From: Octopus vulgaris
Taxonomy: Eukaryota
DNA: 64,000 nt
Assembly: GCA_951406725.2 (NCBI GenBank)
Contig: OX597816.1
Coordinates: 44,268,001-44,332,000, forward strand
Reading direction: 5' to 3'
Part shown: positions 1 to 64,000 of the stretch, in pieces
Layout of the letters: each line of letters opens with the position of its first letter
Numbering within the stretch: position 1 is the stretch's first letter
The notes under the pieces: model-generated
Database searches by the model: none
Told to the model about the DNA's origin: nothing
What the model saw: only the letters and a program-made list of their open reading frames with translations
Made by a program: the position numbers and the translations under genes

Positions 1-221
1 TAAAATTTGCCATTTAGGCATTTACAAAGAGGGGACAAACAAGGACAGACAAATATAAAGGGTGAAGTAGCTTAACACAGTTACAATTTTCGAATGAAAT
101 TACGGATAAGATTATAAACAATGAATTTTACGAAGGCAATGTTTAAAAATATTAATGATCATGTCGAAGGACGGACACCCAGTCATCCGGGTAGAACCTT
201 TACTTTCTGATCCGGTCACAC

Positions 222-3200
222 TTACCTGGTGCCAAACATACCCATCTTGTATGCCACAGGCTTCCATCTTTTCACAAACATATCTCGTGACAGACACCTC
301 TTCTCCAGCCTGATTTTGCTACTGAGGTGGTAACTAAAAAAGTTAATCAACCCCTGGCCGGAGACAAAGGTGCCTGTCACTATACCTTTCGTACGCGTCT
401 TCCATACTGTTTCTTTCAGTATGGCTACTACACAGAAAAAACAAGCCTTTCTTTCCCTGTTAAGGAAAGGGGGCGGCACAATCTCGATGATAGACTCAGC
501 TGATAGCTGTACTCTTCCCATCACTGATAACAGTTGTTCAACAAAAGCTATCAGTCCCGATAACTCCGGACACTCCACGAATGCGTGCAAGACGGTCTCC
601 CTATCCTGCTCACATCGCGGGCATGTCGGCGAGACGGCACTACCGTGCCTTGACAGCTTGTCGCGAACAGGTAAAGCCGCACGGAAACACTGCCAGGCCA
701 GGGATTTCTGGTAATTATCCAGATACCCCGGCCCGAACGTCCTCCGGAACAGGTTGACCAACTGATTTTCATCGTAGCCCAGGGTCTCCCCCAAGGCTTC
801 TTCGGACTTAATCTCCACTAACCCGCTATAGAAATCCGTGGTGGAACTCCTGTTGCCGGCGTTGCCCACCCGAGATAGTAGCTGGAGCGCCTGACGGCAC
901 TCCAAATGCCATTCACTCAGTTTAGGTCTCCGCTTGATCCATGCACCGATGTCCGTTAGGGATGTTAACTGGGGAAGGTAGAACCGGACGTGCGGTGACC
1001 ACACCTGCTCTCCATCCAGGTAAAGCCAGAGGTGCCTCAACCTTAACGCGAGTTTTCGCATCCTCAGCCAAGGTATCCCTAGTCCACCCTTTAGCGGTTT
1101 CTGGCAGCAGACAGAGCGCTTTACAAGTGGCTTTCCTCCTTTCCACAAAAATCGGAAAAGGATTCTCTCCAACTTGTTCAGCCATAAATCGGGGCAAGGC
1201 ACCACGGTCAGACGGTAGGTGATTACTGATGCTATAAACATCTGCACCACCTCTGTCTTCCCTAGCAGGGATAACGCCCGCCCAGACCAGGTCTGGGTTA
1301 GAGCGGTCACCTTGTTGGCCACCTCACTCCAATTTTTCTCAATCTGGAGGTCTGGCCCGAACCAGACTCCGAGCAGCTTAACAGGACCTTCCGTCCAACG
1401 CCCTACGACGTTATTGGACGGCATCGGCTTGCCCCTCCAGGTGCCGAGTTACAAACCGACCGACTTGTCCTTGTTAACCTATGCTCCTGCCACCGCCTCG
1501 TAGCTTTTGATGGCCTCTTCCACCACTGGAAGCTGGCCTTCGTCTGCCACGATGATGGAGGTGTCATCCGCATACGCCGTAGCTCCTCTTCCACACCATA
1601 GATCATGCGGCGCGCCCCCTAGTGCCTCCAACTTCCGCAGCAAAGGCTCAAGAGCCAATACGTATAGGAGCGAGGACAGGGGACACCCTTGACGAACTGA
1701 ACGCTCGATCCTGAACGGCTTAGAAAAGGAACCGTTCACCTTGACTACAAACTCGATGTCGCTATACAAAGCAGCGATCCAGCCTCGAAAGGTCGGGCCT
1801 AGGCCAGCCTCTCCGAGGACCGCCGCCAGGTACCGATGGTCGACCCTATCAAATGCTTTGGACTGGTCTAAATGTACCAATGCTCCCCCTGCGCCAGAAA
1901 GCTTCCCCACCCTCTCTAAGGAGTAGCGTATAAGGTGGAGATTGTCGTGGATCGTTCTGCCGGGGATAGCGCACGTTTGCGCATCCCCGACAAGTTTGTC
2001 CACGACCCGCGCCAACCTTTTTGCTAGCACCTTGGCCAGAATCTTTATCTCTGTGTTTAACAGAGTTATGGGCCTGAAGTTCCCTATCTCGTCCCCCTTG
2101 TTCGGGTCCTCCCTGATCAACGTCACCGCCCCCGGCTCGCAGACTTGGGAATTCTCCCATTCTGCTGCCAGTTGGCGTAGACGCTAGCCAGCAGGTGCCC
2201 GAACAAGTCTGGCATACTTCTATAAAATTCATAGGGCAGACCATCGAGACCCGGCGACTTCTCCCTGGGGCACTTGCCCAACACCTCGATTACTTCCTCG
2301 GCTGTGATTGGCCCTTCACAGCACTCAGCCTCTCGTGTCGAGAGGCGCGGGCCACCAGACAGGAAGTCCCTAAGGGCCTCACCATGATCCAGCGTCCCGC
2401 ACCTCCCGAACAACTCGGCGAAGTGCTTGTGAAGTGCCTCACACATCTCGTCCCGCTTCTTGATCGTGCATCCGTTTTCATCAACAAGAGACCCAATTGT
2501 GGCATCGTTTCCACGCTGTGTTTCTATCGTACGGGCCCATCCGGCAACATTAATTCCCTCACGGCCCAATGCTCGTACTTTAGCCCGGACTCTACATCCC
2601 TCATGTTTGGTTTTGAGGTGACGGTCTAATGCCGTTCTCGCCGCTAAAATGTGAGATGCAGAGCCCAACCTCAACGCCTCCTCTAAGTTCTTAACTAGTT
2701 GCCCTTCTATTCTAGCCCTATCTAGTCTTAGTTGTTTACTAAATCTAATGGACTCGAATCGAATGGCTCTTTTGAGGGTGAACCACCACCGGTTATTAAC
2801 CACGGCTCCGGTTAACGCCCTCTGCACTAACACCTTAATCCGGCTACGGTATGCCTCGCGTGTCAAAATAGACTTGTTCAGCTTCCAGTAGCCGGTTCCT
2901 ATCTTAAATGTGCTATCTATGTCCAGTCTACACGTGACCATTCTATGGTCAGTATAGGGCACCTGGACGAGCTGTGGACAACTGAAACTAGACTTATCTC
3001 TAGTTCTTATCACTATCCTGTCTAGGTAAGACTTGAACCTTCCGTCGCCACTCATCCAGGTCCACTCTGGGACGTTCGGATGGTCAAGTCTGTAACGATC
3101 TGCCAGCTGAAACCGCTTAAGCAGATCCACGAGACGTGAGTTCACTTTCCTATAGATCGAGCCAACGCTATCGATGTGTACGTCAACGATAGCATTAAAG

Positions 3201-3622
3201 TCCCCTAATATCACTAAAGTCTTCGACGTCACGAGAAAGCCCTCTAGGCGCCGATAAAAATCAGTTTGGAAGCCTCTAGCACAAGGTGCATATAGTCCGA
3301 TCAACCTGAAGGCCTTACTGCTGTATGTCACATCAAGGACGACCAGCCCACCTTCTGGGTCTACATAGACTGTACTTGTCTGTAGAGCCAAGTCTTTACG
3401 GATCAGTACCACTACGCCCCCTCGCCCTCCGGTCTGGCCAGGAGACATGATTTTCTCGTAGCCATTTAGGAGAGGCGAGAAGGTTTGTAGGCTGTCCAGC
3501 TTGGTCTCTGTAGCAACCATCACATGTATATTATGTGATCTGAGGTCGTCGAGGAAACAAGCCTGCTTCCACTTCGAACTCAGACCACGCACATTTAAAC
3601 AACCAAGGTTAAGCGAAGCCAT
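222..3622 (-). CDS. Tx1 ORF2 (APE endonuclease, reverse transcriptase, CCHC finger), split by two frameshifts near 2125 and 1480
   Basis: ORF 2123-3622: LNVRGL, ATETK, GDFN, LDR, TDH, GYWKLN, KSPGLDGLPYEFY. ORF 1479-2126: NFRPITLLNTEIKILAKVLA, LDQSKAFDRVDH, RQGCPLS, AYADD. ORF 222-1424: KLLGVWFG, GGLG, CPRC..ETVLHAFVEC. Confidence 0.93.
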
Positions 3623-3639
3623 TACAAAAAGTAAAAGTT

Positions 3640-5063
3640 CTACTTACGTTTCGTTGGAGAGGTGGGGGCCGACCTCGCCACACGTTTGTGGGCCCCTTCT
3701 TTCTCCTCTTTCTTCAGATAGTCCGGCAAGTTCGCGATATGCCGGATGGCGTTTGGGTGTCTGTCTTTTAATTGTTTGAACGTTGTTTCCGCAATCCACG
3801 CGTGTCTATTTCGATCTTTGTATTCGTTGTACAGTCTTGCTGACTGATGCTGAACCACAATATCGTTTATGTATTTGTCTTGTGTGTCGAATTCAATTAA
3901 TATGAGTTCATTTTCTTTTTTGTTTTTTTTTCTGGGCCAGTTGAGCGGGATTTTTTTTCCGTGTCTGTTGTGTGTCTTTGTTTTTATTACTTTTTGTAGG
4001 GGATGTGGACGGGGATGCTGCACGAATTCTTTTACGAACTGGTGTAAATCACCCCTCTGATACCTCCATGGTATCGTCTGGGGTGGCAATGGTTTGTTCG
4101 GTAGGCGCCGCAGTTTTTAGGGGGGTGGGAGGTTTTAATAGTGTAGGGGTTTGTGAGTGCGAGGGCTGGGTTTTTTCTTCAGTCTGTTTTGGGGTTGGCA
4201 CCGTAACAGCGGGAGTGGGATTTTTTGTTTTTGTAGGGGTAGGTGTGTTTGCCAGGGTAGGAACTTTTTTATTATCTGAGGGGCCTGGTGTCTGCGGTTT
4301 CTTTTGCTTGTCGGGACAGTCTACACGAATGTGGCCCTTTTTGCCGCAGGCGTAACAGGTGGGTTTTCGGCCTTCGACCTGTACCCTGAGGGCTACGTCT
4401 CGCCCACGAGCACCCTCTCAGGAAGGAGCTGCAGGTCCTCCGCTGTTCCTTGAATTAATATATTAATGTTACGCCCGAGCCAAAATCGAGGGGTAGAGCA
4501 TATTACTTCTAGTATTTTTATTTTGTCCGCCCTTTTATATAATAGGGCGGCCACTACCTCTACCGGATCGACTTCCGGCGGGGCTTCTACAATCCTGACC
4601 CGGGACGTCCTGCGTCCCCTATAGCTTGGAAAAAGTACCACCTCCTTGGTTTTTAGGGGGTTTACAGAATGCCCGCGGGCCATTTCTTCCCCGAGAAGCG
4701 GACATCCACTGTGCCATATGCCCGTCCCCTGGCGACGTACACGATGTCCTTCCAAATCGGGGACAGGCATTTCTCGATGGTACTTTTTTCAAAGTGTTTG
4801 AACCTTCTGCTTTGTGGACAGAAAGTTTTAAACACTACGGTCCGCTTCTCGGTCTCCACGATACTGGCGGAGGGTGATATTTTAACATCACTACCCTCCT
4901 CTTGCATTTTTTTAAATAGCTCGACGAGCTGGTTGACATCGATATCAATTTTCTCGGTAGCCACTGCGGCTACCTCAGAAAATTTTTTAACATTGCTCTC
5001 CTCAAGAGCACTACTTTCGTGAATAATTTCAACAGACATTATTCTGTTGAAATTAGACAACAC
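3640..5063 (-). CDS. Tx1 ORF1, gag-like nucleic-acid-binding protein with CCHC knuckle; frameshifted
   Basis: Pieces 4662-5063, 4393-4770 and 3640-4089, plus the knuckle VEGRKPTCYACGKKGHIRVDCP read on the minus strand near 4313-4380. Ends 17 nt before the ORF2 ATG. Confidence 0.85.
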
Positions 5064-5445
5064 AAAAATTACGAGTATTGGTTTCCCACAAAACTGGGAA
5101 ACCTATAGAAAGTTTTTCTTCCAAAGTAGTTCAAAAAAGCAGTTCAAAAATTCCAATTCCCACCCCCATTCGGGGGAGGGGCATGAAATTAGTCTGGCAG
5201 GACTATGTATAGTCACGTAAATAAAAAGCCACAGTGGCTAACAGTTCAACGGTAAGAAATTATTCAATTATTTCCCGGTAAAACCGGAGAACAAGACAGT
5301 TCAGCAACGTTTAAAGGCAAATTTTCAGTAGTAGGAATTCAACAATTAACAACACAGCAAAACTCTTACCGGGAAGAAAACGCGTCCACACCGTAGTACG
5401 GTAAGCAAAGTCACTCTTCTGTCAGTGAGGTTAGCAAAGCTACTT

Positions 5446-7445: not shown

Positions 7446-7461
7446 GTTAGCAAAGCTACTT

Positions 7462-8933: not shown

Positions 8934-8971
8934 GTTAGCAAGCTACTTACCACACAGCCACTCCTGCGCCT
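8934..8971 (-). mobile_element. 5' head of tRNA-derived SINE family A, interrupted by the Tx1 array
   Basis: Reverse complement AGGCGCAGGAGTGGCTGTGTGGTAAGTAGCTTGCTAAC matches the start of SINE copies at 52811, 30897 and 42133 (minus). Confidence 0.9.
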
Positions 8972-10129
8972 ATGTTTATTAATTTTTAATGCTTACTGAC
9001 AAACCTACGTATTGCGGAAGAGAATTGATATAATAATAGCAGGTACTGAATTATATGAAATAGTATTAAGTGATGAGAGTTTATACCATTAATAGGGTTA
9101 GCTTCATTTCATAAACATGGTTTCGTGTCCCAGCAGTATTTACATTTATAATGGTATATTCAAGCTTCGAATTATTTTTTTTTCTTTGTTTCTTTCTTGC
9201 TTTTTTTTTTGAGGGGGCGGAGAATGAAGTTAGACTACCCAGTCATACACAAACAGACACATGTTAACAGACATAGATGTTAACTCAAACACACACACAC
9301 ACGCAAAACTAACTCTAAAATATCTATTTTATTGTACACTGTCACAGCTATCTATTTAAGATTTCATCTTCTTGATGTATTCTAACGAAAAGCAATATTT
9401 TTTTTATGTGTATGTACGTGTATGCGTGTATGTGTATTCGTGTTGAACACTAACTGGAGCAAATTGTTTGTTTAAGTACCTACTAAATTGTCAGTCATCC
9501 TCTTCGGACGCATGAAGAGACCAGATCTTTACCTTGTCCAATTAAAAGACGTGTATATGTTTCCTCGTGATAGTAAAATACATTCCACTTGCTGCAATTA
9601 AGTGCACAATCTCTCAGCCAGCAATATACGCGTCGGTCGACTCATGAAGTGTAATTAGATTTTCGGGCTCAAGTTGGACCTGTAAAACGCTTTATGCACA
9701 TATAACAAGAACAAAATTGAACGACCAGCATCGTATTGCAGAAGTTAGGAGGAGCGAAACGAAAGTTTGCATCGATAGCCAGGCAGTAAAATCTGCAATA
9801 TTTCGATTATGTTATTAGGGTCCAGTTCACGTGAGCCCACGGGTGAATGCAGAAAAGAAAAATAGGCTTCCAAGCGAAAAGTATGAAGATAGAGCAATGG
9901 CTTGGAAAAGTAGTCGAAGAGGATCCTCGCAGAGTCTATGGCTGAAGCAAGTGACTGATATGTGTGAGTGTGGCGACAATGGGTTGTTGTATCTGAGGCT
10001 GTTGACCTTCAGCCATGAGGATGGACAACATCCAGCTCCTCTTTATCACTGTAAATATATATCATGCAAACAGGTTTCAAAGAAAAAAGACTACACGTGG
10101 CATATAGTAATAGGGGAAAAGTAAAAAGT

Positions 10130-11789: not shown

Positions 11790-12840
11790 TGTGGATACCG
11801 ACATTCGTGAGCTTAAATCAACACTAATCAAGAAACATTACCCAACAGCATTAATAGAAGATGGGATTAAACGAAAAAAGGTATGAGACATACAAACATT
11901 AAGGGAAATTAACCGAAATACTACCCCAAATTTAAAAGCACTCCCATACATTTCCACACATAACACAAGAAACAATGAGATATTCAACATCATCAAATCT
12001 ACCCATTCTCACTGGAGATATGAACAATGAATGAAATTTTCGTCGCACACTCAATTATCAAAAGCAAAATGCAACCGAAATGATTGAAAAAAATATTAAG
12101 CGTCGCAAGACTATATCCCTTAACAACGGAACCAAAAGGGGAAAAATGCAGTCGGCCTGTGTCACAGGGTTAAATATTTAACAGGCAAGGTGAAATATTT
12201 AAGATAAATTCAAATTTCACTTGCGTCTCTGAAAACCTAATCTATGTTAAAACCTGCTTAGGTTGCGGAAACCACTATACAGGTCAAATGCGAATGTTTC
12301 TCACACGAAGAACAACGCTTCACCAAAAAAAACAAATGTGCTTCCTATATAGATAGATACAGGTCAGTGAGCACATAGATAGATGTGTTAAGAACCTTAA
12401 ACCAAACTTCGTTATTTCCCATTTTTATCAATGTTCCCAGAACATCTCAGTGCAGCAAAGTCTAAATAAAAAGGCAACTTTCATTAATGAATATCAACCA
12501 AATTTAACATGAACACAGAACTCAATACAAGACACTACTAACCGTATTAATATCAATACTCCCACTAACTCTCATACATCCCATATACCATTCATACTCG
12601 ATGAATCATATTAACCTAATTGCATCACTTTCTGAACTGCTTACCACCTTTGCATGCATTCTTTTAACTCAGGTACCGTTACACCTAACACCGCTTGGAA
12701 ATCGGTCTTGATTCAAAGTCAGTGAACAGCGATAAGGAAACCGGTATGACTTTTTATACTAACTCATAATAATGATTTTATACTTCTTAATTCCACCTCA
12801 AATCATTTATTTGTATGTATGAGTTTATAAAAACAAGCCA
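11790..12840 (+). mobile_element. Second, diverged Penelope-like 3' fragment, inverted relative to 10130-11170
   Basis: Reverse-complement similarity to 10130-11170, e.g. tctgaaaacctaatctatgttaa and ttaggttgcggaaaccactata, including the pseudo-LTR. Confidence 0.82.
12715..12753 (+). ncRNA. Minimal type I hammerhead-like motif with G3-C8 core
   Basis: aaagtca-GTGAACA-gcgataag-GAAA-ccgg-TA-tgacttt. 7-bp stem I and palindromic stem III; the stem II closing pair is lost in this copy. Confidence 0.55.
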
Positions 12841-13949
12841 TTACTTCTATGCCGAGAGTTCATTTACTTTGTTTCTTTTTACTGTCTCCCCTCCCATATA
12901 AATGTATATATATATCCGTGCATGTGTGTGTGTGTGTCTATGTGACTATGTGTTTGTGTTAGTGCGCGCACGCGTGTCTATGAAGGGTTGCTAAAAAGAA
13001 CCTTGCTTTAAGGGTGTCGTGAAAGGCCTCCTTGGTGGCCCTACCTTCTTATAGGGCTAAGAAAAACTGAAAAACTGAAGGAATTCTGCAATAATTGTGT
13101 GAATCTGAGAGGAGAATATGTTGCATAAAATCATAATTAATTGATAAACATTATCAGTTTCTCTGTTTCAATATATGTGTGCTATTAAATCTCTAAAGTT
13201 GCAGTATTTTGTCTAAGCATGTATACTTCTGAAGAAGCAGAGTATACCTCAGTTGGAAGGGGTCACAAAAACATTGACTGGTCACATATTTTGAATGCAT
13301 CTTTTTAAATATGTATATGTAGATGCATACATAAAAATTTATTTCTAAGATTATAACAAAGAATTATTTTATATGCGACTTCGCTAATAAATAGAAAAAT
13401 GTTGAAAAGAAACAGTGCTTTTAATTAACAGAATTCAATCATTAAGCATTCATAATTGGAATGAATATTAATAAATATTAATAAATAATATTAATATTAA
13501 TATTAATAAATATTAATAAATAATATCAATGAATAAATATTAAGTATTTATGGAATTCTGATTTACTGTCGGGTGACTTTTGGCCAACCCTGTATATTCG
13601 TGATATCCCTTTTGTCGGTAACATAGACATTACATATCACATGTGATGGTGAGGCATCTGTAAAATAATTCTAAAATATTTGTACAGTAGTTTCACCTTG
13701 TATATTAGTGATAAACAAAATGAAAGTACACATGGATTTTGTTTCCAATATATAAATTAAATTCAAACGGAATCATATTCGTAAGTTTTGGTAACCTGAT
13801 GTTTTAGTAGGTATCTTCCTTGTTTGCTGCTTTGAATGTTGAACACTCCAAAAGGAAGTTTCTTTCTCTTAATTGCAATAATGGACGCAGTTCATTCAAC
13901 TATCATCCCCATTCTCAATATTAAACATGGAAAACTCAAGTACACATAT

Positions 13950-14165
13950 ATTTCTTTACTACCCACAAGGGGCTAAACACAGAGGGGACAAACAAGGACA
14001 GACAAACGGATTAAGTCGATTATATCTACCCCAGTGCGTAACTGGTACTTAATTTATCGACCCCGAAAGGATGACAGACAAAGTCGACCTCGGCGTAATT
14101 TGAACTCAGAACGTAACGGCAGACGAAATACGGCTACGCATTTCGCTAACGTTTCTGCCAGCTCG
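13950..14165 (-). mobile_element. SINE family B (tRNA-like head, Nin/Deu-like core, Tx1-like tail)
   Basis: Core GGTCGACTTTG(C/T)C..TCATCCTTTCGGGGTCGATAAA..AAGTACCAG and tail TTTGTCTGTCCTTGTTTGTCCCCTCT...GCCCCTTGTGGGTAGTAAAGAAATA. Many copies in the window. Confidence 0.88.
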
Positions 14166-14639: not shown

Positions 14640-14955
14640 CGCAACTGGTACTTAATTTATCGAACCCGAAAGGATGAAATGCAAAGTGCACCTCGGCGGA
14701 ATTTGAACTCAAAACCTAAAGACAGATGAAATACCTATTTCTTTATTACCCACAAGGGGCTAAACATAGAGGGGACAAACATGGACAGACAGATTATATC
14801 GACCCCAGTGCTTAACTGGTACTTAATTTATCGACCCCGAAAGGATGAAAGGCAAAGTCGACCTCGGCGGAATTTGAACTCACAACGTAACGGCAGCCGA
14901 AATACCGCTAAGCATTTCGCCCGACGTGCTAACGATGCTGCCAGGTCGCCGCCTT
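14640..14955 (-). mobile_element. SINE family B copy with an adjacent partial second copy
   Basis: Same core twice (14645-14735 and 14800-14955), with a tail between them. Confidence 0.85.
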
Positions 14956-15984: not shown

Positions 15985-16311
15985 GAGGTCAACACTCATT
16001 TTGAATAAATTTTACACAAAGTTGGTTTAATGAAAAGACATTACATGACAGTAGTAGTAGTAGTAGTAGTAGTAGTTGTTGTTGTTATTGTTGTTGCTAA
16101 GCAACAAGACGGGTAAGAGTGATTAGGTGATGCGCTAGGGCTTAGGGGCAGGAGACCCCAGACCCTGGGGAAAAAAGCAACTTTGGTCGTCTTGTTGTAG
16201 TCGAGGGCTCTTCGTTGACGCCCGACACCACTGGGAGGTGGCCCTCGAAGTTGGTTTAATGAAAAGACATTACATGGCGGTAATAGTAGTAGTAGTAGTA
16301 GTAGCAGTAGC

Positions 16312-16356
<45 letters not shown>

Positions 16357-16586
16357 TGTTGTTGTTATAGTTGTTGCTAAGCAACAAGACGGGTAAGGGT
16401 GATTAGGTGATGGTCTAGGGCTTAGGGGCAGGAGACCCCAGACCTTGGGAAAAAAAGCAACTTTGGTCGTCTTGTTGTAGTCGAGGGCTCTTCGTTGACG
16501 CCCGACACCACTGAGAGGTCAACACTCATTTTGAATAAATTTTACACAAAGTTGGTTTAATGAAAAGACATTACATGACAGTAATA

Positions 16587-16633
<47 letters not shown>

Positions 16634-16812
16634 TGTTGTTGTTGTTTTTATTGTTGTTGCTAAGAAACAAGACGGGTAAGGGTGATTAGGTGATGGTCCA
16701 GGGCTTAGGGGCAGGAGACCCCAGACCTTGGGGGAAAGAGCAACTTTGGTCGTCTTGTTGTAGTCGAGGGCTCTTCGTTGACGCCCGACACCACTGAGAG
16801 GTGGCCCTCGAA
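15985..16812. repeat. Three tandem units of about 230-300 bp containing (AGT)n/(GTT)n microsatellite
   Basis: aagttggtttaatgaaaagacattacatg...gggcttaggggcaggagaccccagacc...gacgcccgacaccactg recurs three times. Confidence 0.9.
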
Positions 16813-17946
16813 GTCGCTGGAAATGGAGATCTCCAGGTTTAAATTCTTGAACAGCTGCTGTTGCTTCTGGAGATTAGCCCCCAAATGACCTGTGATAAAA
16901 TTCAATCCAGCCATGATTATTTGCTGTAAGTGCCAGACCTTGTGTTCAGTGGACTATATTATGTCCACATTTTTTTTATTACGATTGGACGTGAGTTGGA
17001 GTGGTTATTTCCTGCGCGTACAACGAGATAGAAGTTTCCTCGATTGTTCTTAGAAGCGAAAGATTTCTAAAATGCAGAAGGCCATTATATACCATAATCG
17101 CATAAAATTCCTCTATATGCAGAACAGAAATTGAAGAACATGAACCTTTGATGTCTGCAATAGACATGTAAGGACAATGTGGTGGAAATTTGAAGATGTT
17201 TAGTAAAATATGAATTATAATTGCTATAAAATCGAGACATAGCCATATGCCAAACATGGTAATAAGCCAGAGATTAAAAATATTAAAACTTGTTATATTT
17301 ATCCTTATTATTGTCTTACTACGAGAGTATAACCCGCCATATAACGGGTGATGATGGCTTTTACAGAAATAAGTGCATATTTGCAACAGTCGTTATCTTG
17401 CGTATATTAAAATTCTACGTTGCTGGCGTTTATACAAAATAGCGGGATGAAGACTAATTTTTAAAGTATAAATTATTTATTAGATTAAAATGAGGTGAAA
17501 CGAATTCCTCATTTGTAAATTTGCAATAAATATGCGTAATGAATAATAATTATATTGCTTGACTATCATGTAAATAGTGAACCATACAGACTAATTCCAT
17601 ATAAGGTAGCATAACATTTTTAGAGTGACAACGCACCCAACAATTGAATATCATTTCCAGTAATAACGGATATTTAATACATTCTCATTCTCTATCTTAC
17701 TCCCTCTTTTACACTCTCTGTCCTTCTTCTTCTTCTCTCTCTCTATCTCTCTGATAATGACATAACAAATAGAATTACGCGCATGATCTACTACTTTGAA
17801 CTGTGAACACACACATACATACCGCATTAAACTCCTCATTCATACTGTATGTATGTATATATATATGTATATATATATGTGTGTGTGTGTGTGTGTGAGT
17901 GTATATATATATATGTATACATATATACATATATATGTGTGTTTAT

Positions 17947-27640: not shown

Positions 27641-29395
27641 TTGATTGATTGATTGATTGATTCTAGTTTCAGCTTATGAGCTGTGGCCATGCTGGGGCAC
27701 CGCCATTTGGTGTTGCTACTTGGTTTCACTTCATGGAGGCTTTCTAGCAACTGCTATTTGGTGCATGAGAGAGTTCGATGCAGCTGCCCTCATCTGCCCC
27801 TCCTGCCGTGAAGTTGGTTCATCTGGGACACCTGACAGGAAGAGATCCAGCTTCATTTTAAAGACATCTGTATCCACCCCATGCAGGTCTCTCAGGTTCT
27901 TCGGGAGGATATTGAAGAGCTGTGGGCCTCGGAAGCCCAGGCTATCACAGAATCTTGTCCTACATCTTGATGGCAGGTTTGGAGTCCTAGGCACCACGCA
28001 GTGGCGCCCAGTTCTGGCATTTGCGTAACTCTCGATGCCAAAGTTCAGGACACTTCCCTCCAGGATCTTCCAGATGTATATTATGGCATATCTTTCCCGC
28101 CTACGCTCCAGGGAATATAATTTTAATCTCTTGAGTCTTTCCCAGTAGCTTACATTCTGCATAGAGGCTATCTTCTTTGTGTAGCTTCGTTGGATCGCCT
28201 CAAGTTCTGTGATCAACTTGACGCTGGATGGTGACCATAGCTGAGAGCAATAGTCAAAGTGGCTTAGGACAAGTGTCTTCCAGAGGACCATCATGGTTTC
28301 TTGTTCTCTTGTTCTAAAGGTTCTAAGAATCCATCCAGCCAGCCGTCTACATTTCATTGTCAGTTTAGCAACATGTACATGAAAGGTCGCGTCATCACTC
28401 ATGTGAATACCCAGGTCACGCACTGATTGTGCCTCTGGGATTGCAATCCCTCCGGGTCCAGTGTATTCATTGGGTATTGCATTCAGTTTTGCATGCTGAT
28501 AGTATAAAGCTTGAAACTTTCCAGCATTGAACTGCATGCTATTCTTTTCAGCCCACTTGTATATTTCGTCCAGCTCACATTGCAGGTGTTTAGTGTCCTC
28601 AGGGTTCTGTATTGCCTGTGAAACTTTGTATCATCTGCATAACTTGTGATCGTGGCTCTCTGCGTGGCTGAGGGCATGTCTGAGAGGGCCATTATGAACA
28701 GTAGTGGTCCCAGAACAGTGCCCTGCGGAACACCGCTCACTATTTGTGTGTTAATGGAGGTGGCCCCATTGGCTACTACCACCTGACTTCTATCCTTCAG
28801 AAAGTCATGAAGCCATTCTCCCAGTTTTCCAACTATGTTGAGATCACGCAGTTTGTGACATATCATTCCATGATCGACTTTATCAAAGGCCTTTGCAAAG
28901 TCGAGATATATCACTTCCACATTTGAGTGGTTGAGCAGCCGTTTCAGTACCCAGTCATAGTGTTGTAGGAGCTGAGTTAAACAGCTTCTCCCTGGTCGGA
29001 AACCATGTTGGGTGTCGGGCAGCAAGTCATTCTCTTCAAGGAAGGTGATCAGCTTCCTTCTGACTATTCGTTCCATGACCTTGCTGATGTGTGAGGTCAG
29101 AGAGATAGGTCTATAGTTCTGGGCTTCCGCTCTGCTACCTCCTTTATGAATGGGGCATATTTTACCTTCCTTCAGTTTTCCTGGAAGTTTGCCAGCTGCA
29201 AGGAAGCTCTGAAAGAGGAACTGCAGTGGTCTTGCTAGGACTCTCTTACATGCTTTTAGGAGGATTGCCGGGAATCCATCGGGGCCAGTAGCTGAGTCTG
29301 TTTTCATTTCACCTATAGCCTTGGTTACATCGTCTTCCTTTATATCGATGTAATCTATCGTCGCCGCCTCTGATTTTATATCTGCAGTGGTAAAA
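27641..29395 (-). mobile_element. 5'-truncated CR1/L2-group LINE (RT to 3' end) with (AATC)n tail
   Basis: SATGPDG, NYRPISLTS, QHGFRPGRSCLTQL, YLDFAKAFDKVDH, SGVPQGTVLGPLLF, YADDTK, RDLG, LEAIQR, YWERL..LYSLERRR. One frameshift near 28620. Confidence 0.92.
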
Positions 29396-29937
29396 AGAAA
29401 TATAAATATAATCAACAGGTAACTTTGGTTAGAAGCTTTAATAATATAACATCCAAAATATAACAAGATATATATTTCAAATTCAGTAGAGTAGGAAAAC
29501 TATATTATAGAAAAAAACAAGAACTTATATTCACAATTGGTTATAGCAATATTATACAATATGGTAAACACTAATATTATAGCAATATTGTATAATATAG
29601 CAAACGTTCCAGGCTTCATGGTTAAGTATGTAACCATTATAATTCAATCGGCGTTTATTAGAGAATAACGCTAACAACAAATACGTCCACTGAATAGTTG
29701 AAGTGTGGTTTGTAGTTTGCCGGACAGAAATATCATCCAATTAAGTAACCACATATTTCATCGTTGAGATTTCCCAGACTTACATATGTAATATTACTGG
29801 ACACTAGTTATTTATCATCAATAACAGCCTCCTAGCAATAGCCAAACATTTCCAGCGAAGCATACATAACCTTGTCGTTAGAATCATTAATGGTAAATAT
29901 TTCAACTTGAAGGCGACAGAGAAAGAAAATGAGAGAT

Positions 29938-30286: not shown

Positions 30287-30615
<329 letters not shown>

Positions 30616-30895
30616 TATATATATACACACACATTTATATTTATAATATATCGTTCTTTTCCTTGATATATTGTTTTAGAACGTTTAACATCCAAACCGC
30701 CAAGGATCGGCTAGAGAAACCGAAATAGCAACCAAAATCTCTTTCATCACTCGTACTTGTCATACGAAACGAAGAACACATTGAATAATATAATTCTGAT
30801 TATATATGTTTCTACACAGAAACAACTGCAAATGCTCAAATATCCAATAGCAATTGTTCTCTTCCATTACAGGAATATAACAGAAACACTAACAT

Positions 30896-34805: not shown

Positions 34806-35038
34806 GGCGGCGAGCTGGCAGAAACGTTAGCACGCTGGGCGAAATTGCTTAGCGGTATTTCGTCTGTCGTTACGTTCTGAGTTCAAATTCCGCCGAGGTC
34901 GACTTTGCCTTTCATCCTTTCGGGGTCGATAAATTAAGTACCAGTTACGCACTGAGGTCGATGTAATCGACTTAATCCGTTTGTCTGTCCTTGTTTGTCC
35001 CCTCTGTGTTTAGCCCCTTGTGGGTAATAAAGAAATAG
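34806..35038 (+). mobile_element. SINE family B
   Basis: Full head, core and tail. Confidence 0.9.
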
Positions 35039-35039
35039 G

Positions 35040-35330
35040 TATTGCAGATCGTCCCGTGCACATTTGTAAAAGGGAAAAATTTTGAATTTCCCGTCACTGC
35101 ATATTTCCAGATGCTTACTTAATGGAATCTTGCGCAATTTCTCTTGCCGGATATGTTTCCTGTAGATTCCTGCAGAGGGAATTATTTGTTTCGCCAATGT
35201 AATTTTCTTTATAGTTTGGGCAGGTGATGCTGTATACTGGGTTTTGCAGTTCATATCTGCATTTATTTTGAAAAGGGATCTGCTCTTGAATTTTATGTGG
35301 AATCCACTTCCTAATATTTAAAGTTGTTGT
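35040..35330 (-). mobile_element. Penelope-like GIY-YIG fragment
   Basis: QNPVYSITCPNYKENYIGET (ORF 35115-35360), followed by HLEICSDGKFKIFPFYK. Confidence 0.7.
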
Positions 35331-51788: not shown

Positions 51789-52810
51789 TGTGTGTCTGTG
51801 TGTATATATATGTATGTTTGTGCTTGCATGCGTGCGTGTGTATCTGCCGCGCGCGTGCTTATAGTATTATGCTTCGATGGATAATTGATGTTTTACTTAA
51901 GAGTAGCCTATGTAAATCCGAGTATGTTGCTACAGTACTAAGTTGACAATTTAAATCATGTATTGGAAAGTTCATTGAATAATAGATAACTTCCTGTTCA
52001 CACTTTGACAGGATGTCGTAGATTCGAATTTTGAGATTACACCGAAAACGGAGAGGTGCAGTGTGATATGATAAAATTACGAGAGTAAATAATGGGGACA
52101 GGTGATCTGTTGTTTAGTCGGATACTCCAAAGGTGTTACCTAAATCTATTGAGAAATCTCCGGCTAATTTGTGATAAGAAAATCGATTCACATAATATAC
52201 ACACCTAGCATTCTATGAAGTTCTTCCAGGTACAGACAAAACGGTCGGTGTGATGCAGGTAGTTTTTGTTAGGACAGGTAAAGGTAATGATCTGGGAGAG
52301 GAAGCGGTTAGTGTGGCAAAGTAGACAGGGGATGGAAAGATCTAGATCAGGTGCGGGAGAAGAGAGGTGTCACGAATCAGTAGCTCTTGCAATTTGTGGG
52401 CATAATCAAAGGAGAAAGATATAAATTGCAAAAGAGGCAGGAACTAGCGAGATCGGACGGTAGTTTTGTAGAATCGAAGGGCAGTGTACAGGAGAGGTTA
52501 GATATAGGAGTTGTAAATGAAGAGGAGGGAAGACAGTTGTTTGTGAGGTAGCTATAAGTTAAATGAGTGGTGATGTGGTTTATTTTGTAGGAAAGTATGA
52601 GGGCACCTTGGAGTAAGGTCGGGTTACACTCAACTTCTAGTCATTTCAGAACATACGTTCAGAGTAGAATGTAGGGACCATGAGAAGTGGATCGTATACT
52701 CAAAACGGGTTGTCAGACTGTCTGGAATGGTAGAGAGTAAGGGAAATGGAATGTGGATTAGCGGTTAGCGTTTTAGATACAATATAGGTGTAAGAAGGAG
52801 AAAATGCTGT

Positions 52811-53243
52811 AGGCGCAGGAGTGGTTGTGTGGTAAGTAGCTTGCTAACCAACTACATGGTTCCGGGTTCAGTCCCACTGCGTGGCATCTTGAGCAAGTGT
52901 CTTCTGATATAGCCCCGGGCCGACCAATGCCTTGTGAGTGGATTTGGTAGACGGAAACTGAAAGAAGCCTGTCGTATATGTGTGTGTGTGTGTGTGTGTG
53001 TGGTTGTGTGTCTGTGTTTGTCCCCCTAGCATTGCTTGACAACCAATGCTAGTGTGTTTAGATCCCCGTCACTTAGCGGTTCGGCAAAAAAGAGACCGAT
53101 AGAATAAGTACTGGGCTTACAAAGAATAAGTCCCGGGGTCGATTTGCTCAACTAAAGGCGGTGCTCCAGCATGGCCGCAGTCAAATGACTGAAACAAGTA
53201 AAAGAGTAAAAGAGTAAAAGAGTAGAGTAAAAGAGTAAAGAGA
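52811..53243 (+). mobile_element. SINE family A, full length, with an empty Tx1 target AAGTAGCTTGCTAAC at 52834-52848
   Basis: Complete head, microsatellite and tail with (TAAAAGAG)n. Confidence 0.92.
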
Positions 53244-53422
53244 ACAGTAGTTGCCAAATTTGTAATAAATAAAGGTAGATATAGTGAGTTTTATTTTTCT
53301 ATTTTGATGGAGGGATGCAGAAGTTTCAAGGAAGTTAATAAATGGAGGATATGAAATGACGAGCGTTGTGAGAGATGCTAACTAGGAGATGAATCAGTTC
53401 AATGACGAAAGATGATGCACAG

Positions 53423-53655
53423 ATGGCGAGCTGGCAGAAACGTTAGCTCGCCGGGCAAAATGCGTAGCCGTATTTCGTCTGCCGTTACGTTCTGAGTTCA
53501 AATTCCGCCGAGGTCGACTTTGCCTTTCATCCTTTCGGGGTCGATTAAATAAGTACCAGTTGCGCACTGGGGTCGATATAATCAACTTAATCCGTTTGTC
53601 TGTCCTTGTTTGTCCTCTCTGTGTTTAGGTCTTTTGTGGGTAGTAAAGAAATAGA
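53423..53655 (+). mobile_element. SINE family B
   Basis: Full head, core and tail. Confidence 0.9.
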
Positions 53656-54486
53656 TATTTCTATATAACAGATAAAAATAGTCTCAGACTCATACAGTCG
53701 CCTGACTACATACACAAAAATTAAGACTCACATACATACAAGCAAACAGATGTAAGAGCGGTAATATACATGCAATCAGCATTCACGTACATATACACAT
53801 AAAAACACGCACAAAAGCACATGAGTCCCTATAATTTTCATTGGCATGCTCCGTACGTAAATATTGCAACAGCTCAACAAGCACATACACATATCTACTA
53901 TTCACACGCACACAAACACACACATACACATGCACACAGTACTACGAAAACACCAAATACGCACACAAGTACATGTAGAAACATATAAACACATGCGAAC
54001 TTACACACAAAAACAGGTCAACCTGAACGACAGCTGATAGCCATGTACTTACACACATATACACTTAAGCATACGCGCATATAAACACTTATATACACAG
54101 ACGGACATAGTCCTCATTATCTCCCCTTTTCAACTTTGTAATTGAACATCAATTTATTCCCTCACGTCTTCCCCACTCAACAAAATGGCCTACTCCTAAA
54201 TGCATGTTTCTCGGACGCCTCACTTTTTCCGCGTTTTTTTCCTCTTTCTTTCTCTCTTTGTAGGTTTTCTTTACGTTGAATAGCAAATAAGTTCAACACA
54301 TCGAACTTTTATTTCATTACTCAGAAACAGTTTGAAACTAATCTGACTTTATGGTGTTAAATATTACCATTGAAGTGTTAAACTAGTACCATATGTTTCA
54401 TACTTTGTTCTTCCTATGTTCAGCATTTCAATGTTAATTTTCTTAATTTTATATATACATATAAGTATGTCCATACATACATGTGT

Positions 54487-54691: not shown

Positions 54692-55297
54692 ATACATATA
54701 GACATTCTTGTATCTACAAACATATTTACAGGTATAAATATATGTATACATACAAAACTATATATACATATATATATATATGTCTATCTATTTATGTATG
54801 TGTGTGTGAATGTTTGTCTGTATGTGTGTGTGTGTACAAACGCGAAAGCACACACACGTATGAGTGCGTATGTCAAGTGCTATTTTCTTTCGTTTGTACA
54901 CATACATATATACATACATACGTACATACGTATATACATACGTACATACATACGTACATACACACACACACACACACCGTGTGTTTATTGTCGTTGGCTG
55001 TCTCTGTTTTGGTAGAAGAATAGATGAAATCTGAAAAGACAAATGATCAAGATAATTAAAAGGAAGCCGTATCTTCAGGAATGTCTGTAAACGGATGTCG
55101 TAGTCTGTGCTACGTCAAAGAGAAACAAGTGTTTGCTAATGTATAATTCGGAATTGTCCATATTAACTGATCTTCCTTGTTTTAATGAGCTTAACAAAAC
55201 TTTCCACAGTCTTGAGATTTTCCGGCTTACGAGCGCCTGCCTCTGCTGCTGATAAATGTTATTGATACAGATTGAAGACGGTGATGGCGATGATGAC

Positions 55298-55464
55298 GAC
55301 TACTACTACTTACCACTACTACTACGTTCACCTACACTACAACTATCGCCTGAACCGCCAACACCACTGCTAGAACTGCCACCAGCTCAGCTACCTTTAT
55401 AAATGAAATAACTGCTACGGCTGCCAACATCACCTACTACCACTATTACTACTACTTCTACTAT

Positions 55465-55544
<80 letters not shown>

Positions 55545-55567
55545 TCACCACCACCACCACCACCACC

Positions 55568-55609
<42 letters not shown>

Positions 55610-55898
55610 GTACTACTACTACTACTACACCTACAACAACTACTACTACTACCACCACCACCACCACCACCACCACCACCACCACCACCACCACCACCAC
55701 CACTACTACTACTACTACTACAACTGTACTACTACTACTACTACTACTACTTACCACTACTACTACGTTCACCTACACTACAACTATCGCCTGAACCGCC
55801 AACACCACTACTAGAACTGCCACCAGCTCAGCTACCTTTATAAATGAAATAACTGCTACGGCTGCCAACATCACATACTACCACTATTACTACTACTT

Positions 55899-55965
<67 letters not shown>

Positions 55966-56009
55966 CACCACCACCACCACCACCACCACTACTACTACTA
56001 CTACTACTG

Positions 56010-56041
<32 letters not shown>

Positions 56042-56264
56042 ACCACTACTACTACGTTCACCTACACTACAACTATCGCCTGAACCGCCAACACCACTAC
56101 TAGAACTGCCACCAGCTCAGCTACCTTTATAAATGAAATAACTGCTACGGCTGCCAACATCACCTACAACCACCACTACTTCTACTACTACTACTTCTAC
56201 TACTACTACTACTACTACTACTACAACAACTACTACTACTACCACCACCACCACCACCACCACC

Positions 56265-56297
<33 letters not shown>

Positions 56298-56544
56298 GTA
56301 CTACTACTACTACTACTACTTACCACTACTACTACGTTCACCTACACTACAACTATCGCCTGAACCGCCAACACCACTACTAGAACTGCCACCAGCTCAG
56401 CTACCTTTATAAATGAAATAACTGCTACGGCTGCCAACATCACCTACTACCACTATTACTACTACTTCTACTACTACTACTTCTACTACTACTACTACTT
56501 CTACTACTACTACAACAACTACTACCACCACCACCACCACCACC

Positions 56545-56589
<45 letters not shown>

Positions 56590-56772
56590 GTACTACTACT
56601 ACTACTATTACTTACCACTACTACTACGTTCACCTACACTACAACTATCGCCTGAACCGCCAACACCACTACTAGAACTGCCACCAGCTCAGCTACTTTT
56701 ATAAATGAAATAACTGCTACGGCTGCCAACATCACCTACTACCACTATTACTACTACTTCTACTACTACTAT
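55298..56772. repeat. Five tandem units (about 280-440 bp): conserved block of about 135 bp plus variable (ACT)n/(ACC)n
   Basis: cgttcacctacactacaactatcgcctgaaccgccaacacc...ttataaatgaaataactgctacggctgccaacatcac recurs near 55325, 55766, 56055, 56335 and 56627. Confidence 0.93.
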
Positions 56773-56996
56773 CAGCCCCACTGAACCATGACCACAGTTG
56801 CAATTACCATCTACAACTCTTACAAGTGTGACCATCTCTACAACTACTACCACCTCCACTACTACCAGAAACAGTAGTGGTGGTAGTTGTTGTAGTAGTA
56901 TTAGTAGTAGTAGTAGTAGTGCTAGTACCACTACCATCATGATCACCACTATTACTACAATTACAGCTATTACAACTACAAAAACAACCGAAACTG

Positions 56997-57030
<34 letters not shown>

Positions 57031-57157
57031 CACTACTTGTGTTAAGGAATATGTGTGGAACGTGGCGGTTTTAGGAGAACGAGGCTGCTATTTCTCACAC
57101 AATGAACGACTAGTTACAGACTTCTTCGATAGCTCTCTTGAATATAGCATATTTTAA

Positions 57158-57590
57158 TGCGGTGAGCTGGCATAGACGTTAGCCCGCCGGGCGAAATGCT
57201 TTGTGGTATTTCGTCAGTCGCTGCTTTCTGAGGTTAAAATCCGCTGAGGTCGACTTTGCCTTTCATCCTTTCGGGGCCGATATATTAAGTACCGGTTACG
57301 CACTGGGGTCGATGTAATCGACTTAATCCCTTTGTCTGTCCGTGTTTGTCTCCTCTATGTTTAGCCCCTTGTGGGCAAGAAAGAAATAAGAAACGTTAGC
57401 ACGCTGGGCGAAATGCTTAGCGGTATTTCGTCTGTCATAACGTTTTGAGATCAAATTCCGCCGAGGTCTACTTTGCCTTTCATCTTATCGAGGTCAATAA
57501 CTTAAGTACCAGTTGCATACTGTAGTCGATGTAATTGACTGGCACCCTTCCAAAAACTTTCAGGCCTTGTACCTAGAGTAGAAAAGAATA
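57158..57590 (+). mobile_element. SINE family B followed directly by a 5'-clipped related SINE
   Basis: Two consecutive Nin-like cores; the second has a different tail. Confidence 0.82.
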
Positions 57591-60914: not shown

Positions 60915-61047
60915 CTTTTTGCCGATCGGCCTGGTTACAGGGGCGTAAACACCCCAGCAACAGTTGTCAAGCGGTTGTCAAGCGGTAAACACAGAGACAG
61001 ACACGCAAGCACACACATACGCACGCACATACGCACGCACACACACA

Positions 61048-61085
<38 letters not shown>

Positions 61086-61277
61086 TATACACACACACAC
61101 ATACACACACACAGACACACAGACACACACACAGACACACACACACACCACAGGCTTCTTTCAGTTTCTGTCTACCAAATCTGCTCACAAGGCTATAGTA
61201 GAAGACTCTTGCCCAAGATGTTACGGTTATACAGTGGGACCAAACTCGAAACCATGTGGAAAGGAAGTGTGCTTCTT
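60915..61277 (-). mobile_element. SINE family A body; its head is displaced to 62117-62142 by an insertion
   Basis: ...cttgcccaaga...cagtgggaccaaactcgaaaccatgtgg...gcttctt stops at 61277. ttctcaccgcacagccacgcttatgc resumes at 62117. Confidence 0.78.
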
Positions 61278-62116
61278 TATGCTTCTCATCAAATTTGCCA
61301 TAAAGGCACTACATAGATAGAAGTAAATGCAGGTTGGACAACAACACAAATGAAATTAATGATGAGCAAAATAATGATATTGATGAAGGAAGCAGACGAC
61401 GCCCGCCGATCGATGCTTTCCGAAAACATTGTTCTTTTTTTTCTTTTATAAAAACCAATTGAGGTTATAAACCTCTTGCTATTGTTCTTTGGGACACAAG
61501 GTCCTTTCAAATGAGGCACTAAGCCTCTTACATTTTTCACAAATGGACTCCACGTCCTTACAAAATGTGGCGCTAATCCTCTTGAATTTTTTACAACTCG
61601 AGGCATTAAAGCCTCTTACTTCCATGCCCGGCTAGGCCCACCGCCTCATTCAAGCACCCGGACGCTGCCAAGTCAGGGCACTTTAGCATAAATTTAAATA
61701 TATCCTCGGAGAAGGAGATCATTATCCTGCGTTAGTCGGTTTCTCCTATGACCTCCGCAGCCATCTGCGGAGGCCAATTAGGTCTTCAGTGCAGGACAGA
61801 ACCCCTTCCCTCTGGCCTTTTTTTTTTCACCTTCTTTACAAAGTTTTGTAAAGCCCCTCCTTGTGAAAGAGGATTACAAATTCCTCGTCTATCAAATAGG
61901 AAGGGGCCACAGTTTCTTCCGTCGGTGGCACAATTCCCACCGACGGGGTTTCGGGACATGTCGGCAGCGTTTTAGTAACCGCCGGTAATGCCCCGTTTTT
62001 CTTCTTTTTTTTTTCCTTTTGCCACGGGAGGGTGGAGTTCTTCCGTTTTGCCCGGAAGATTTTCCTTCCCTCCCGCAGCCTTAGAATCCCTCGGTGGGCA
62101 ACCATTTCCACCAACA
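61278..62116 (-). mobile_element. 5'-truncated, diverged ORF1-only Tx1-derived element (element 4, related to element 2)
   Basis: 3' hairpin tttgccataaaggca is identical to that of element 3. Minus-strand peptides NGCPPRD, PSVGIVPP, ILFHKE and PNWPPQMAAEV match element 2 NGCPPKN, PRVGCVPP, LLYHKG and PLWPPQVAAEK. Confidence 0.78.
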
Positions 62117-62668
62117 TTCTCACCGCACAGCCACGCTTATGCATGTGTATGCGTGTGTGTGTGTGAATGTGGGTGGTTTGTGGATATGTATGTTTAGTTA
62201 TGTATGTGTATATATACATGCTCACGCATTTGTAAATATGTTACAGGTCGTAATTTAGGGTGAATTTCTAAACAAACATGTAGTGATCTTTTTATTCTCA
62301 TCAAACGGAAGTAAGATAAAGGACCAGTCTCCTTTCATTCATCCGTCTGCTCAAGAAGAGAAATGCATAGAAGTAATTATTTAAATCAATCAAAATTAAC
62401 GCCTAGTTGCAAACGTGATTAACCTGTATTCGCGAGCAATGTGGTCAAATAATTGATATTAATTCGCAACACAGCATTCGTTAAAATCCTAAGAGAAACT
62501 GCAAAGTAGTTAAACTCTATCATTTAGGGCTATTGCTATGAAACTATGAGCAGATGTAAAATACACTTGATAATTTCTCTCTACGTACGCACGCACGGAC
62601 GCACACACAAGATATGCATTTTCCGCAGCTTTTAGACTACTCATAAGACGATTAATACCTAGGAAGAA

Positions 62669-62900
62669 AGCGGCGAGTTGGCAGAAACGTTAGCACGCCG
62701 GGCGAAATGCTTAGTGGTATTTCGTCTGCCGCTACGTTCTGAGTTCAAATTCCGCCGAGGTCGACTTTGCCTTTCATCCTTTCGGGGTCGATTAAATTAG
62801 TACCAGTTACGCACTGGGGTCGATATAATCGACTTAATCCGTTTGTCTGTCCTTGTTTGTCCTCTCTGTGTTTAGCCCCTTGTGGGTAGTAAAAAAATAG
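62669..62900 (+). mobile_element. SINE family B
   Basis: Full head, core and tail. Confidence 0.9.
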
Positions 62901-63237
62901 ATTAATACCTGCGACGTATTTGCAACCATAAATGTTACTATATATCTCAGAACATGGCAATAATTTATTGTTCATGTGCAGAAATCTACCAAAGAACTCA
63001 ATAACGAACGACTAAAAGTAATATAAATTGTCTTTATCTTATGTACTCTAACGGAATTAGAAAGAAATCAGGGAAATGGGTTAAAATTAATATACATTAA
63101 AATTAATGCATTTCATTTTTTGATAAATATTTATAATTTATCGCTCCGAACTTACACTCAAATTAGATGACGCACTGAGCAGCAGATTGTTATCACACAA
63201 TTTCAATATATTTGAATTCACATTCATTTAAATAAAA

Positions 63238-63633
63238 CTAGCAGTATCGCCGGCGTTGCTCGGGGTTGTAAGGGAAATAACTATATAAGCATTTTTAGAG
63301 AGTTATAGCCAAAAAATAGCAAAAAAATGCATTAAAAATGGAAAAAATATGATGGTAAATTTTTTTTAAATCGTTGTCTCATCGTAGACATTTTTAGAGA
63401 GTTACTTCCCTTTATTTAAAAAATATGCGTTAAAATGGAAAAAAATGATGTTAAATTATTTTTAAAATCGTAGACTCATCGTAGACGCGTGCTAATACCC
63501 AGAAGGGCTCGCTATGAATCACGACTATAAGATACCCGGTTTTGGTTAAACTGCGCCGCAAAATGTGGGAGTAGTTAGGAATCTAAATCGTAGGAGACAG
63601 ACACTCACACAACTTCACTTTTATATATAAAGA
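63238..63633 (-). mobile_element. Non-autonomous Helitron
   Basis: Minus strand starts A|TCTTTATATATAAAAG and ends with a GC-rich imperfect hairpin (CCGAGCAACGCCGG) then ...CTGCTAG|T. No TSD. Confidence 0.75.
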
Positions 63634-64000
63634 TATCTACAACTTAGGTCTTACGTTGTATGTTTTGCAAGTGTATTCATATTAGTGCAGTTCGTTTATG
63701 CTTTAAATTGTCCGTTTTTGCTTGTGTTTTCCTGCATCCAGCTGTCAGAAACACGTATGTTGCCCCGGATATACATATTTGGCTTGGGTTGTTTCTTTTT
63801 ATTTAATTCTTTTTATTTATCTTATTTTTTTTTGTTTTTTGTTTTTTAAATTCTGTTAGACTCTATAACCTTTTAATGGCTGATATTTCTGTATAGAATA
63901 TCTGTTTATTATGCTCTTTGGCAGATTTCTGCAACTTGAGGAGGGAACGAGAACAACAACTACAACAACAACGAGGACAACGAGAACAACAACGACAGCG

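Follow-up and report, generated by a model that had tools for sequence, protein, structure and literature searches.

Several LINEs of the Tx1 clade are specific for their targets: Tx1L inserts into Tx1D, Keno into U2, and Kibi and Koshi into microsatellites, and in crocodilians Tx1-Mar inserts into Mariner-N4_AMi (PMC4494074). Dependants of this clade (SINEU-3) occur in tandem insertions with one target copy between them (PMC4494074). The type I ORF1, which has RRM and a CCHC knuckle, fits the Tx1 group (PMC5203782). Two non-autonomous elements code for the first protein alone: HAL1 (half-L1) encodes ORF1p only (PMC5753468), and HeT-A is gag-only, is negatively selected, forms arrays with TART and TAHRE and is thought to receive its RT from a partner (PMC5537684). 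The A box/anticodon region of tRNA-type sequences is the target of the Dada DNA transposons (PMC8869645). For Octopus vulgaris, a repeat annotation describes 13 recently active L1-Tx1 families, and the accessible main text of that paper contains none of the words "target", "nested" and "non-autonomous" (PMC13282606). Full-text searches of the literature, mostly of freely accessible papers, found neither a SINE-targeting LINE of Tx1 type nor ORF1-only dependants of one; the families described below may already be catalogued, for example in Repbase or Dfam.

The DNA analysed here is a stretch of 64,000 nucleotides from O. vulgaris (the window). One end carries a head-to-tail array of three elements within a SINE, and toward the other end an old SINE is split by a further insert (Table 1). 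The original prediction had taken this insert for an ORF1-only relative of the middle element of the array (element 2, here E2), inserted independently at the same position of the SINE. It is very probable, in our judgement, that the insert is a dead, 5′-truncated copy of an old ORF1-only family (family D), which was specific for the SINE site and was mobilised in trans by the ORF2 of an autonomous LINE.

Table 1. Positions of the features discussed, numbered from the first nucleotide of the window
Feature	Position	Strand	Evidence
Family D copy, 5′-truncated, last ~830 nt of a 2.15-kb ORF1-only element	61278..62116	-	blast, alignment, tree
Host SINE, 3′ part, old AAGAAG-type variant	60915..61277	-	blastn and alignment to intact SINE 52810-53220
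Decayed 3′ target copy within host SINE	61263-61277	-	junction aligned to L004
Host SINE head, 5′ part (A-box-like stretch), ending in short 5′ target copy	62117..62136	-
ORF1 C-terminal half, decayed (stops, frameshifts)	61610..62106 (lower end approximate)	-	tblastx, tblastn
3′ tail hairpin TGCC-N5-GGCA, then decayed GAAATA end	61296..61308	-
E1, autonomous LINE (ORF1 and APE-RT-zf ORF2), frameshifted copy	1..5429	-
Target copy between E2 and E1	5430..5445	-	sequence
E2, 2.0-kb ORF1-only element; intact relatives encode 415 aa	5446..7445	-
Target copy between E3 and E2	7446..7461	-	sequence
E3, 1.47-kb ORF1-only element; intact relatives encode 400-408 aa	7462..8933	-
SINE head and first target copy of the E3-E2-E1 array	8934..8972	-
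SINE-like repeat of ~230 bp	13946-14165, 14640-14955, 30374-30618, 34806-35046, 53417-53661, 57156-57540, 62667-62902
RT-bearing LINE fragment of another kind, two long reading frames; CR1-like, we presume	27734-29499	-
Tandem satellite of ~6 kb, unit ~56 bp, ~96% identity	45384-51352
Inverted pair, ~1 kb, 79% identity	10158-11134 / 11806-12820
AT-rich element, internal ~98-bp duplication at 63290-63486; ends taken by us to resemble a non-autonomous Helitron-type repeat	63235-63635
Trinucleotide-rich, internally repeated arrays, mutually matching	55296-57038 and 15985-16814

The insert in the old SINE and family D

The homology of the insert to the C-terminal half of the E2 ORF1, claimed in the original prediction, was confirmed: tblastx of 61278-62116 against E2 (5446-7445) gave significant, collinear matches (E 2.7e-17), which include the peptides NGCPP and WPPQ.AAE, and tblastn placed residues 247-408 of an intact E2 ORF1 at about 62106-61642 (E 3e-13). 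The local DNA alignment of the two scored 90, as compared with a mean of 31 and a maximum of 39 for 100 dinucleotide shuffles (z=20). The tail that had been noticed in the insert is also there: TTTGCCAYWARGGCA occurs four times in the window (6, 5458, 7474, 61294) and in a single orientation, where 0.07 occurrences are expected by chance. The breakpoints were mapped onto the SINE exactly as first given, i.e., the head stops at 62117 and the body, beginning with the target's AAG, restarts at 61277, at the position that is used by the array at 1-8972 too. It is an older variant of the SINE, AAGAAG...CTTCC rather than AAGTAGCTTGCTAAC, that has been split. The target site duplication, which had been called too degraded to read, is short, yet it is partly readable as GAGAA on the 5′ side versus AAGAA on the 3′ side (~five bases), and the duplicated bases overlap a microhomology of a few bases to the element. 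An independent insertion at the same target position and in the same orientation as the array is borne out.

The genome to which the window belongs (2.8 Gb) was searched with the insert, and the best 40 of 1,434 candidates yielded 58 matches. Among the matches listed, the best are 84-86% identical to the insert and extend further in the 5′ direction; relatives reach 2.1 kb, which rules out a family with a fixed length of ~830 bp. One of them (L002) is a complete family D element of 2,146 bp, flanked by two target copies, and another (L047) is 2,092 bp long; in neither is there a match to ORF2. The insert starts near nt 1,319 of L002, in keeping with the ORF1-only structure and the 5′ truncation that had been proposed. 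In a tree built on the 830 nt at the 3′ end, it stands with L002 and L003 (87-88%) and far from E2, to which it is 53% identical over this stretch. It is therefore not a piece of E2, and the description of the insert as an internal replicate holds for the whole group of families but not for E2 itself. In ten relatives the junction with the SINE head lies at the first nucleotides of the element, and in four copies, the insert among them, at internal points (about nt 1097, 1319, 1350 and 1446). The placement in the tree, together with the internal join to the SINE head, identifies the insert as a truncated member of family D; judged from its sequence, it is a dead and decayed member of an old ORF1-only family of its own. 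All family D copies seen are decayed. Directly behind one D copy, at the AAGAAG variant, lies an old autonomous element with 74% identity to E1 (L189), an arrangement that makes it a plausible autonomous partner for family D.

At five further loci (L157, L169, L165, L164 and L161), tiny insertions of tens of bases to ~120 bp lie between the SINE head and the target and contain little but the tail, which represents extreme 5′ truncation.

The elements, their shared tail and their target

On the minus strand, the order of the array is SINE head, E3, E2, E1, and the 3′ end of E1 and the remainder of the SINE fall just before window position 1. E1 is 5.43 kb long and has at least 25 full-length copies in the genome (97-100% identical), some with both ORFs open (467-aa ORF1, 1133-aa ORF2). 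In Pfam searches of the ORF2, Exo_endo_phos, RVT_1 and zf-RVT were all above cut-off; the closest solved structure is human L1 ORF2p (E 7.9e-67), and R2 was matched at 6e-20. Among the 120 homologs listed for this ORF2, the nearest named one is a hypothetical protein of Argonauta hians (64%), and none is a named Tx1 reference. E1 represents an autonomous APE-RT LINE lineage that is Tx1-like in its AP-like endonuclease, RT and C-terminal zinc motif, in an ORF1 homologous to the type I ORF1 of E2 (below) and in a target preference with duplication. A relative of E1 (~85%) uses the TAC variant of the target.

Among the ORF1-only elements, E2 has at least 20 full-length copies (94-100%), F (2.24 kb) at least 40 matches at 94-100%, and further families of ~2 kb (G) are found at L185, L187 and L188. 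Some copies of young E2, E3 and F have intact ORFs of 400-416 aa. The 3′ UTRs of E2, F, G and D are related. Of 5,710 database candidates, a single one is homologous to the E2 ORF, an "uncharacterized protein" from Octopus sinensis (61%), so that automatic annotation is likely to assign such elements to unknown repeats or host genes. At L082-L090 and in other E2 matches, part of the E2 ORF1 (at 92-97%) is combined with a different 5′ UTR or 3′ part, pointing to a possible exchange of modules among ORF1-only families.

The sole DNA shared by all families including E1 is a 3′ tail of ~45 nt with a small hairpin, and the DNA likeness of the ORF1-only families to E1 is restricted to these last ~45 nt. 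The hairpin has a four-pair stem and a variable five-base loop; the exact stem was found in 92 of 125 tails, 21 being unparsed. The folding of 70-nt tails is not more stable than that of shuffled sequences (z -1.2 to -1.6), and support for the hairpin comes from the conserved stem with its variable loop rather than from folding energy. A genome search for the tail-plus-target pattern gave 144 matches, which are circular with respect to specificity and were used for finding further families alone.

The elements lie in one orientation at one position of the head of a very abundant SINE, and their specificity can be seen in the sequence that follows them. At 106 distinct element 3′ ends, taken from loci found via similarity to element bodies, the target motif follows in 101 (young families being undercounted, because identical contexts were merged), compared with 183 of 5000 random window positions (3.7%). 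The other five ends lack the motif, and L003, scored as a match, is doubtful. For the D-like class the motif is present at 24 of 26 ends. Exact empty sites in the genome amount to ~62,000: 27,671 of the AAC variant, 31,019 of the TAC variant and 3,269 of the old AAGAAG-TCC variant. E1 resides in the AAC variant in 18 of 23 cases (expected 0.45, p=0.0013). Middle-aged families are in the TAC-type variant in 18 of 18, mostly at loci chosen by the tail-plus-target pattern, and D copies in the old AAGAAG variant in eight of eight. Three points speak against a simple tracking of the target: old elements can only occupy old hosts; E2 and young E3 have no bias for the AAC variant (5/13, p=0.78); and young insertions are absent from the AAGAAG variant (0/36), but with p=0.26 this avoidance is not significant. 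The diagnostic bases deeper in the host SINE agree with the subfamily assigned at the target.

The host SINE carries stretches that, judged by eye, resemble an A and a B box, and it presumably belongs with the SINEs described from octopus by Ohshima and Okada (1994). ARAGORN found no tRNA in the window, Rfam found none at 52700-53300, and folding gave no cloverleaf. A second abundant SINE-like repeat of ~230 bp, with copies 83-93% alike, carries none of the four window tails.

The absence of ORF2 behind the ORF1 of these elements was consistent: an APE match lay downstream of none of 101 ORF1 cores of the E2/F/D or E3 type, at loci from searches that each scored the best 40 candidates, so that a rare autonomous element with an ORF1 of the E2/D type could be missed. 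Within their locus, 90 of these cores reach a tail, eight run off the locus and three are without a tail. Likewise, tblastn with ORF2 gave no match in D, E2 and E3 elements. The autonomous elements fall into three age layers, all with E1-type ORF2, and E1-type ORF1 is present in both for which ORF1 was seen (E1 and L189).

The ORF1s of E1, E2 and E3 are mutually 24-39% identical. The AlphaFold model of the E2 ORF1 (mean pLDDT 67, confident outside residues 209-327) predicts two RRM-like domains, a CCHC knuckle, a disordered linker and a small C-terminal domain. Its best Foldseek matches are tandem-RRM proteins, with hnRNP A1 UP1 at the top (E 2.6e-4); zf-CCHC matches are at or just below cut-off, and Pfam gave no match to Transposase_22. 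The E1 ORF1 is homologous to that of E2 by sequence, the fold being predicted from the E2 model. In the core of ORF1, most dN/dS values are 0.1-0.2; they range over 0.10-0.32 in nine of nine pairs of stop-free ORFs and over 0.09-0.26 in all 14 pairs in which a D copy takes part, and they are rough for distant pairs because dS is near saturation, whereas the linker (0.35-0.84) is nearer neutral. These ratios indicate that the ORF1 of the ORF1-only families is under purifying selection and has been kept functional during amplification. Three database proteins (P0143, P0171 and P0257) combine the ORF1 core with domains of other kinds (C2H2 zinc fingers, LDL-receptor repeats or WD40); these fusions may be either gene-model artefacts or exaptations.

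Mode of insertion and alternative explanations

The shared tail and the shared target suggest that the ORF1-only elements are mobilised in trans by the ORF2 of a partner, and the junctions point to an endonuclease specific for the SINE site. The autonomous ORF2 protein would bind the 3′ hairpin tail of an ORF1-only RNA, which may be packaged by the parasite's own ORF1; the endonuclease would then nick the SINE just before AAG[T/A]AG, followed by target-primed reverse transcription. For the insert in the old SINE, synthesis would have ended after ~830 nt, and the cDNA would have been joined to the SINE head via microhomology, leaving a short duplication. Full-length copies would start with 5-6 nt that resemble the target. 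Each insertion would rebuild a usable target, which makes head-to-tail arrays possible, and an element that lands between the A- and B-box-like stretches probably inactivates the SINE receiving it.

Of the 28 solo insertions that could be parsed, 18 have matching 5′ and 3′ target copies and 10 have differing ones. Young copies in a non-AAC host still end their 5′ copy with CTAAC in five of six cases, three with one extra base, and two older E3 copies have the reverse pattern, with older endings. This suggests that the apparent duplication of 15 bp consists of a true duplication of ~9-11 bp and 5-6 bases borne by the element. The variants of the 5′ junction do not cluster on the E1 tree and so may arise at each junction; their inheritance from donor copies or RNA finds no support on that tree.

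In the arrays, 19 of the 27 E2 loci whose 3′ end is intact have another element behind the E2, and the same is true of E1 in one of 28. The E2-F pairs fall mostly within one E2 clade; E2-type tails lie upstream of F copies in five of 20, the other 15 having no element upstream. Strict transposition of an E2-F dimer was rejected, as the E2 and F trees match in part only and the E1 partners of E2 are scattered; the trees do not discriminate co-movement from repeated insertion. Elsewhere, at L188 (G000:C7:13466500-13472420) and L090/L099, no fewer than five ORF1-only elements with a common CTCG-type target variant form one array, and behind the E2 copy of L081 (at L186) there is a target copy followed by 5.8 kb without a match to ORF1, ORF2 or SINE. 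In contigs of other organisms (X9, X13), all 30 bins into which window 1-9100 was divided are covered with a likeness of at least 90%, and in X9 contigs the E2 5′ end leads directly to a SINE head. In one of four contig-level runs, guessed to be RNA, E2 is nearly fully covered, and E1 and E3 hardly, an observation given no weight here.

Other explanations would account for parts of these data. The ORF1-only copies could be short-lived deletions that arose repeatedly from an unseen LINE with a D/E2-type ORF1, selection having acted in the parent. HAL1 did arise several times independently in mammals (PMC5753468), and the genome searches covered the best 40 candidates each; but none of the 73 cores of the E2/F/D type has APE downstream, and the relatedness of the 3′ UTRs across E2, F, G and D, as well as the E1-type ORF2 in all three age layers and the E1-type ORF1 of E1 and L189, also make this origin improbable. 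Alternatively, the site could be set mainly by base pairing of the RNA end with the SINE, the endonuclease being relaxed. In favour of this, the 5′ target copy of several insertions agrees in its distal 5-6 nt with the element and not with the host, one E2 copy (L085) ends in AAGTAG and is followed by non-SINE DNA, and the RNA of R2 is believed to make use of target sequence from upstream at 5′ junctions (PMC6895275). The 3′ junction is nonetheless base-precise in nearly all copies, host-specific variants start inside the 3′ target copy, and target choice in such elements is mainly credited to the endonuclease (PMC4494074), so we regard site choice by pairing as quite improbable. Finally, the split SINE and its insert could have spread as a composite unit or by segmental duplication, the copies then not being independent. 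The frequent followers of E2 and the single clade of most E2-F pairs imply that some co-movement of arrays is possible; as a general explanation, spread as a unit is highly improbable, given that truncation points vary among copies, that the flanks outside the SINE differ and the host SINE bodies come from different subfamilies, and that most F copies stand without an upstream element.

Trans-mobilisation of ORF1-only families by a SINE-specific LINE is thus the reading we prefer. A wider version of it, which we hold to be unlikely, is a three-tier system of parasites over tens of millions of years: a LINE specialised for the head of the dominant SINE of its host, ORF1-only lineages that have done without ORF2 for so long that dS is nearly saturated, and 5′ ends that would track SINE subfamilies in the order AAGAAG..TCC, AAGTAG..TAC, AAGTAG..AAC. 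In its boldest form, the changes of the SINE at the target would be an escape from a promoter-splitting LINE that re-adapted, and E2 would be a specialist that lands in front of other elements or travels with them.

Comparison with known systems

The insert is a fossil from the oldest layer of a system on a SINE head with ~62,000 exact empty sites. This system makes it possible to test why a non-autonomous element retains an ORF1 of its own, by what means ORF2 is recruited in trans through a short tail, and how specificity for a target shifts with the turnover of the repeat that serves as target; a recently active APE-type endonuclease that is probably highly site-specific becomes available for study as well.

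Like LINEs of the Tx1 clade, the octopus elements combine an APE-RT ORF2 and an RRM and CCHC ORF1 with a fixed site in a multicopy repeat and with tandem insertions. The target here, however, is a SINE head, there being no SINE among the targets described in the accessible part of PMC4494074, and the dependants are protein-coding ORF1-only elements, whereas those of the Tx1 clade in that source are snRNA-derived SINEU. The ORF1-only families are best read as parasites, similar to HAL1 and HeT-A, of the ORF2 of a SINE-specific LINE. With HAL1 they share the form of a non-autonomous LINE derivative that codes for ORF1 alone between defined 5′ and 3′ ends. Their ORF1, however, is of the RRM-CCHC type and that of HAL1 is Transposase_22, which rules out HAL1 proper, the mammalian L1 derivative; furthermore, the octopus elements insert at a specific site, several families with deep splits between them were active together in recent times, and the shared hairpin tail is without a poly(A) run. 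The resemblance to HeT-A lies in a selected ORF1-only element in head-to-tail arrays with an autonomous partner (PMC5537684); HeT-A, in contrast, is located at chromosome ends and serves its host, whereas the octopus elements occupy internal SINE sites with a duplication and have no evident role for the host. Dada has similar target positions, but consists of DNA transposons that hit real RNA genes (PMC8869645). Known parts, a site-specific LINE of Tx1 type and ORF1-only parasites, are combined here on an apparently undescribed target.
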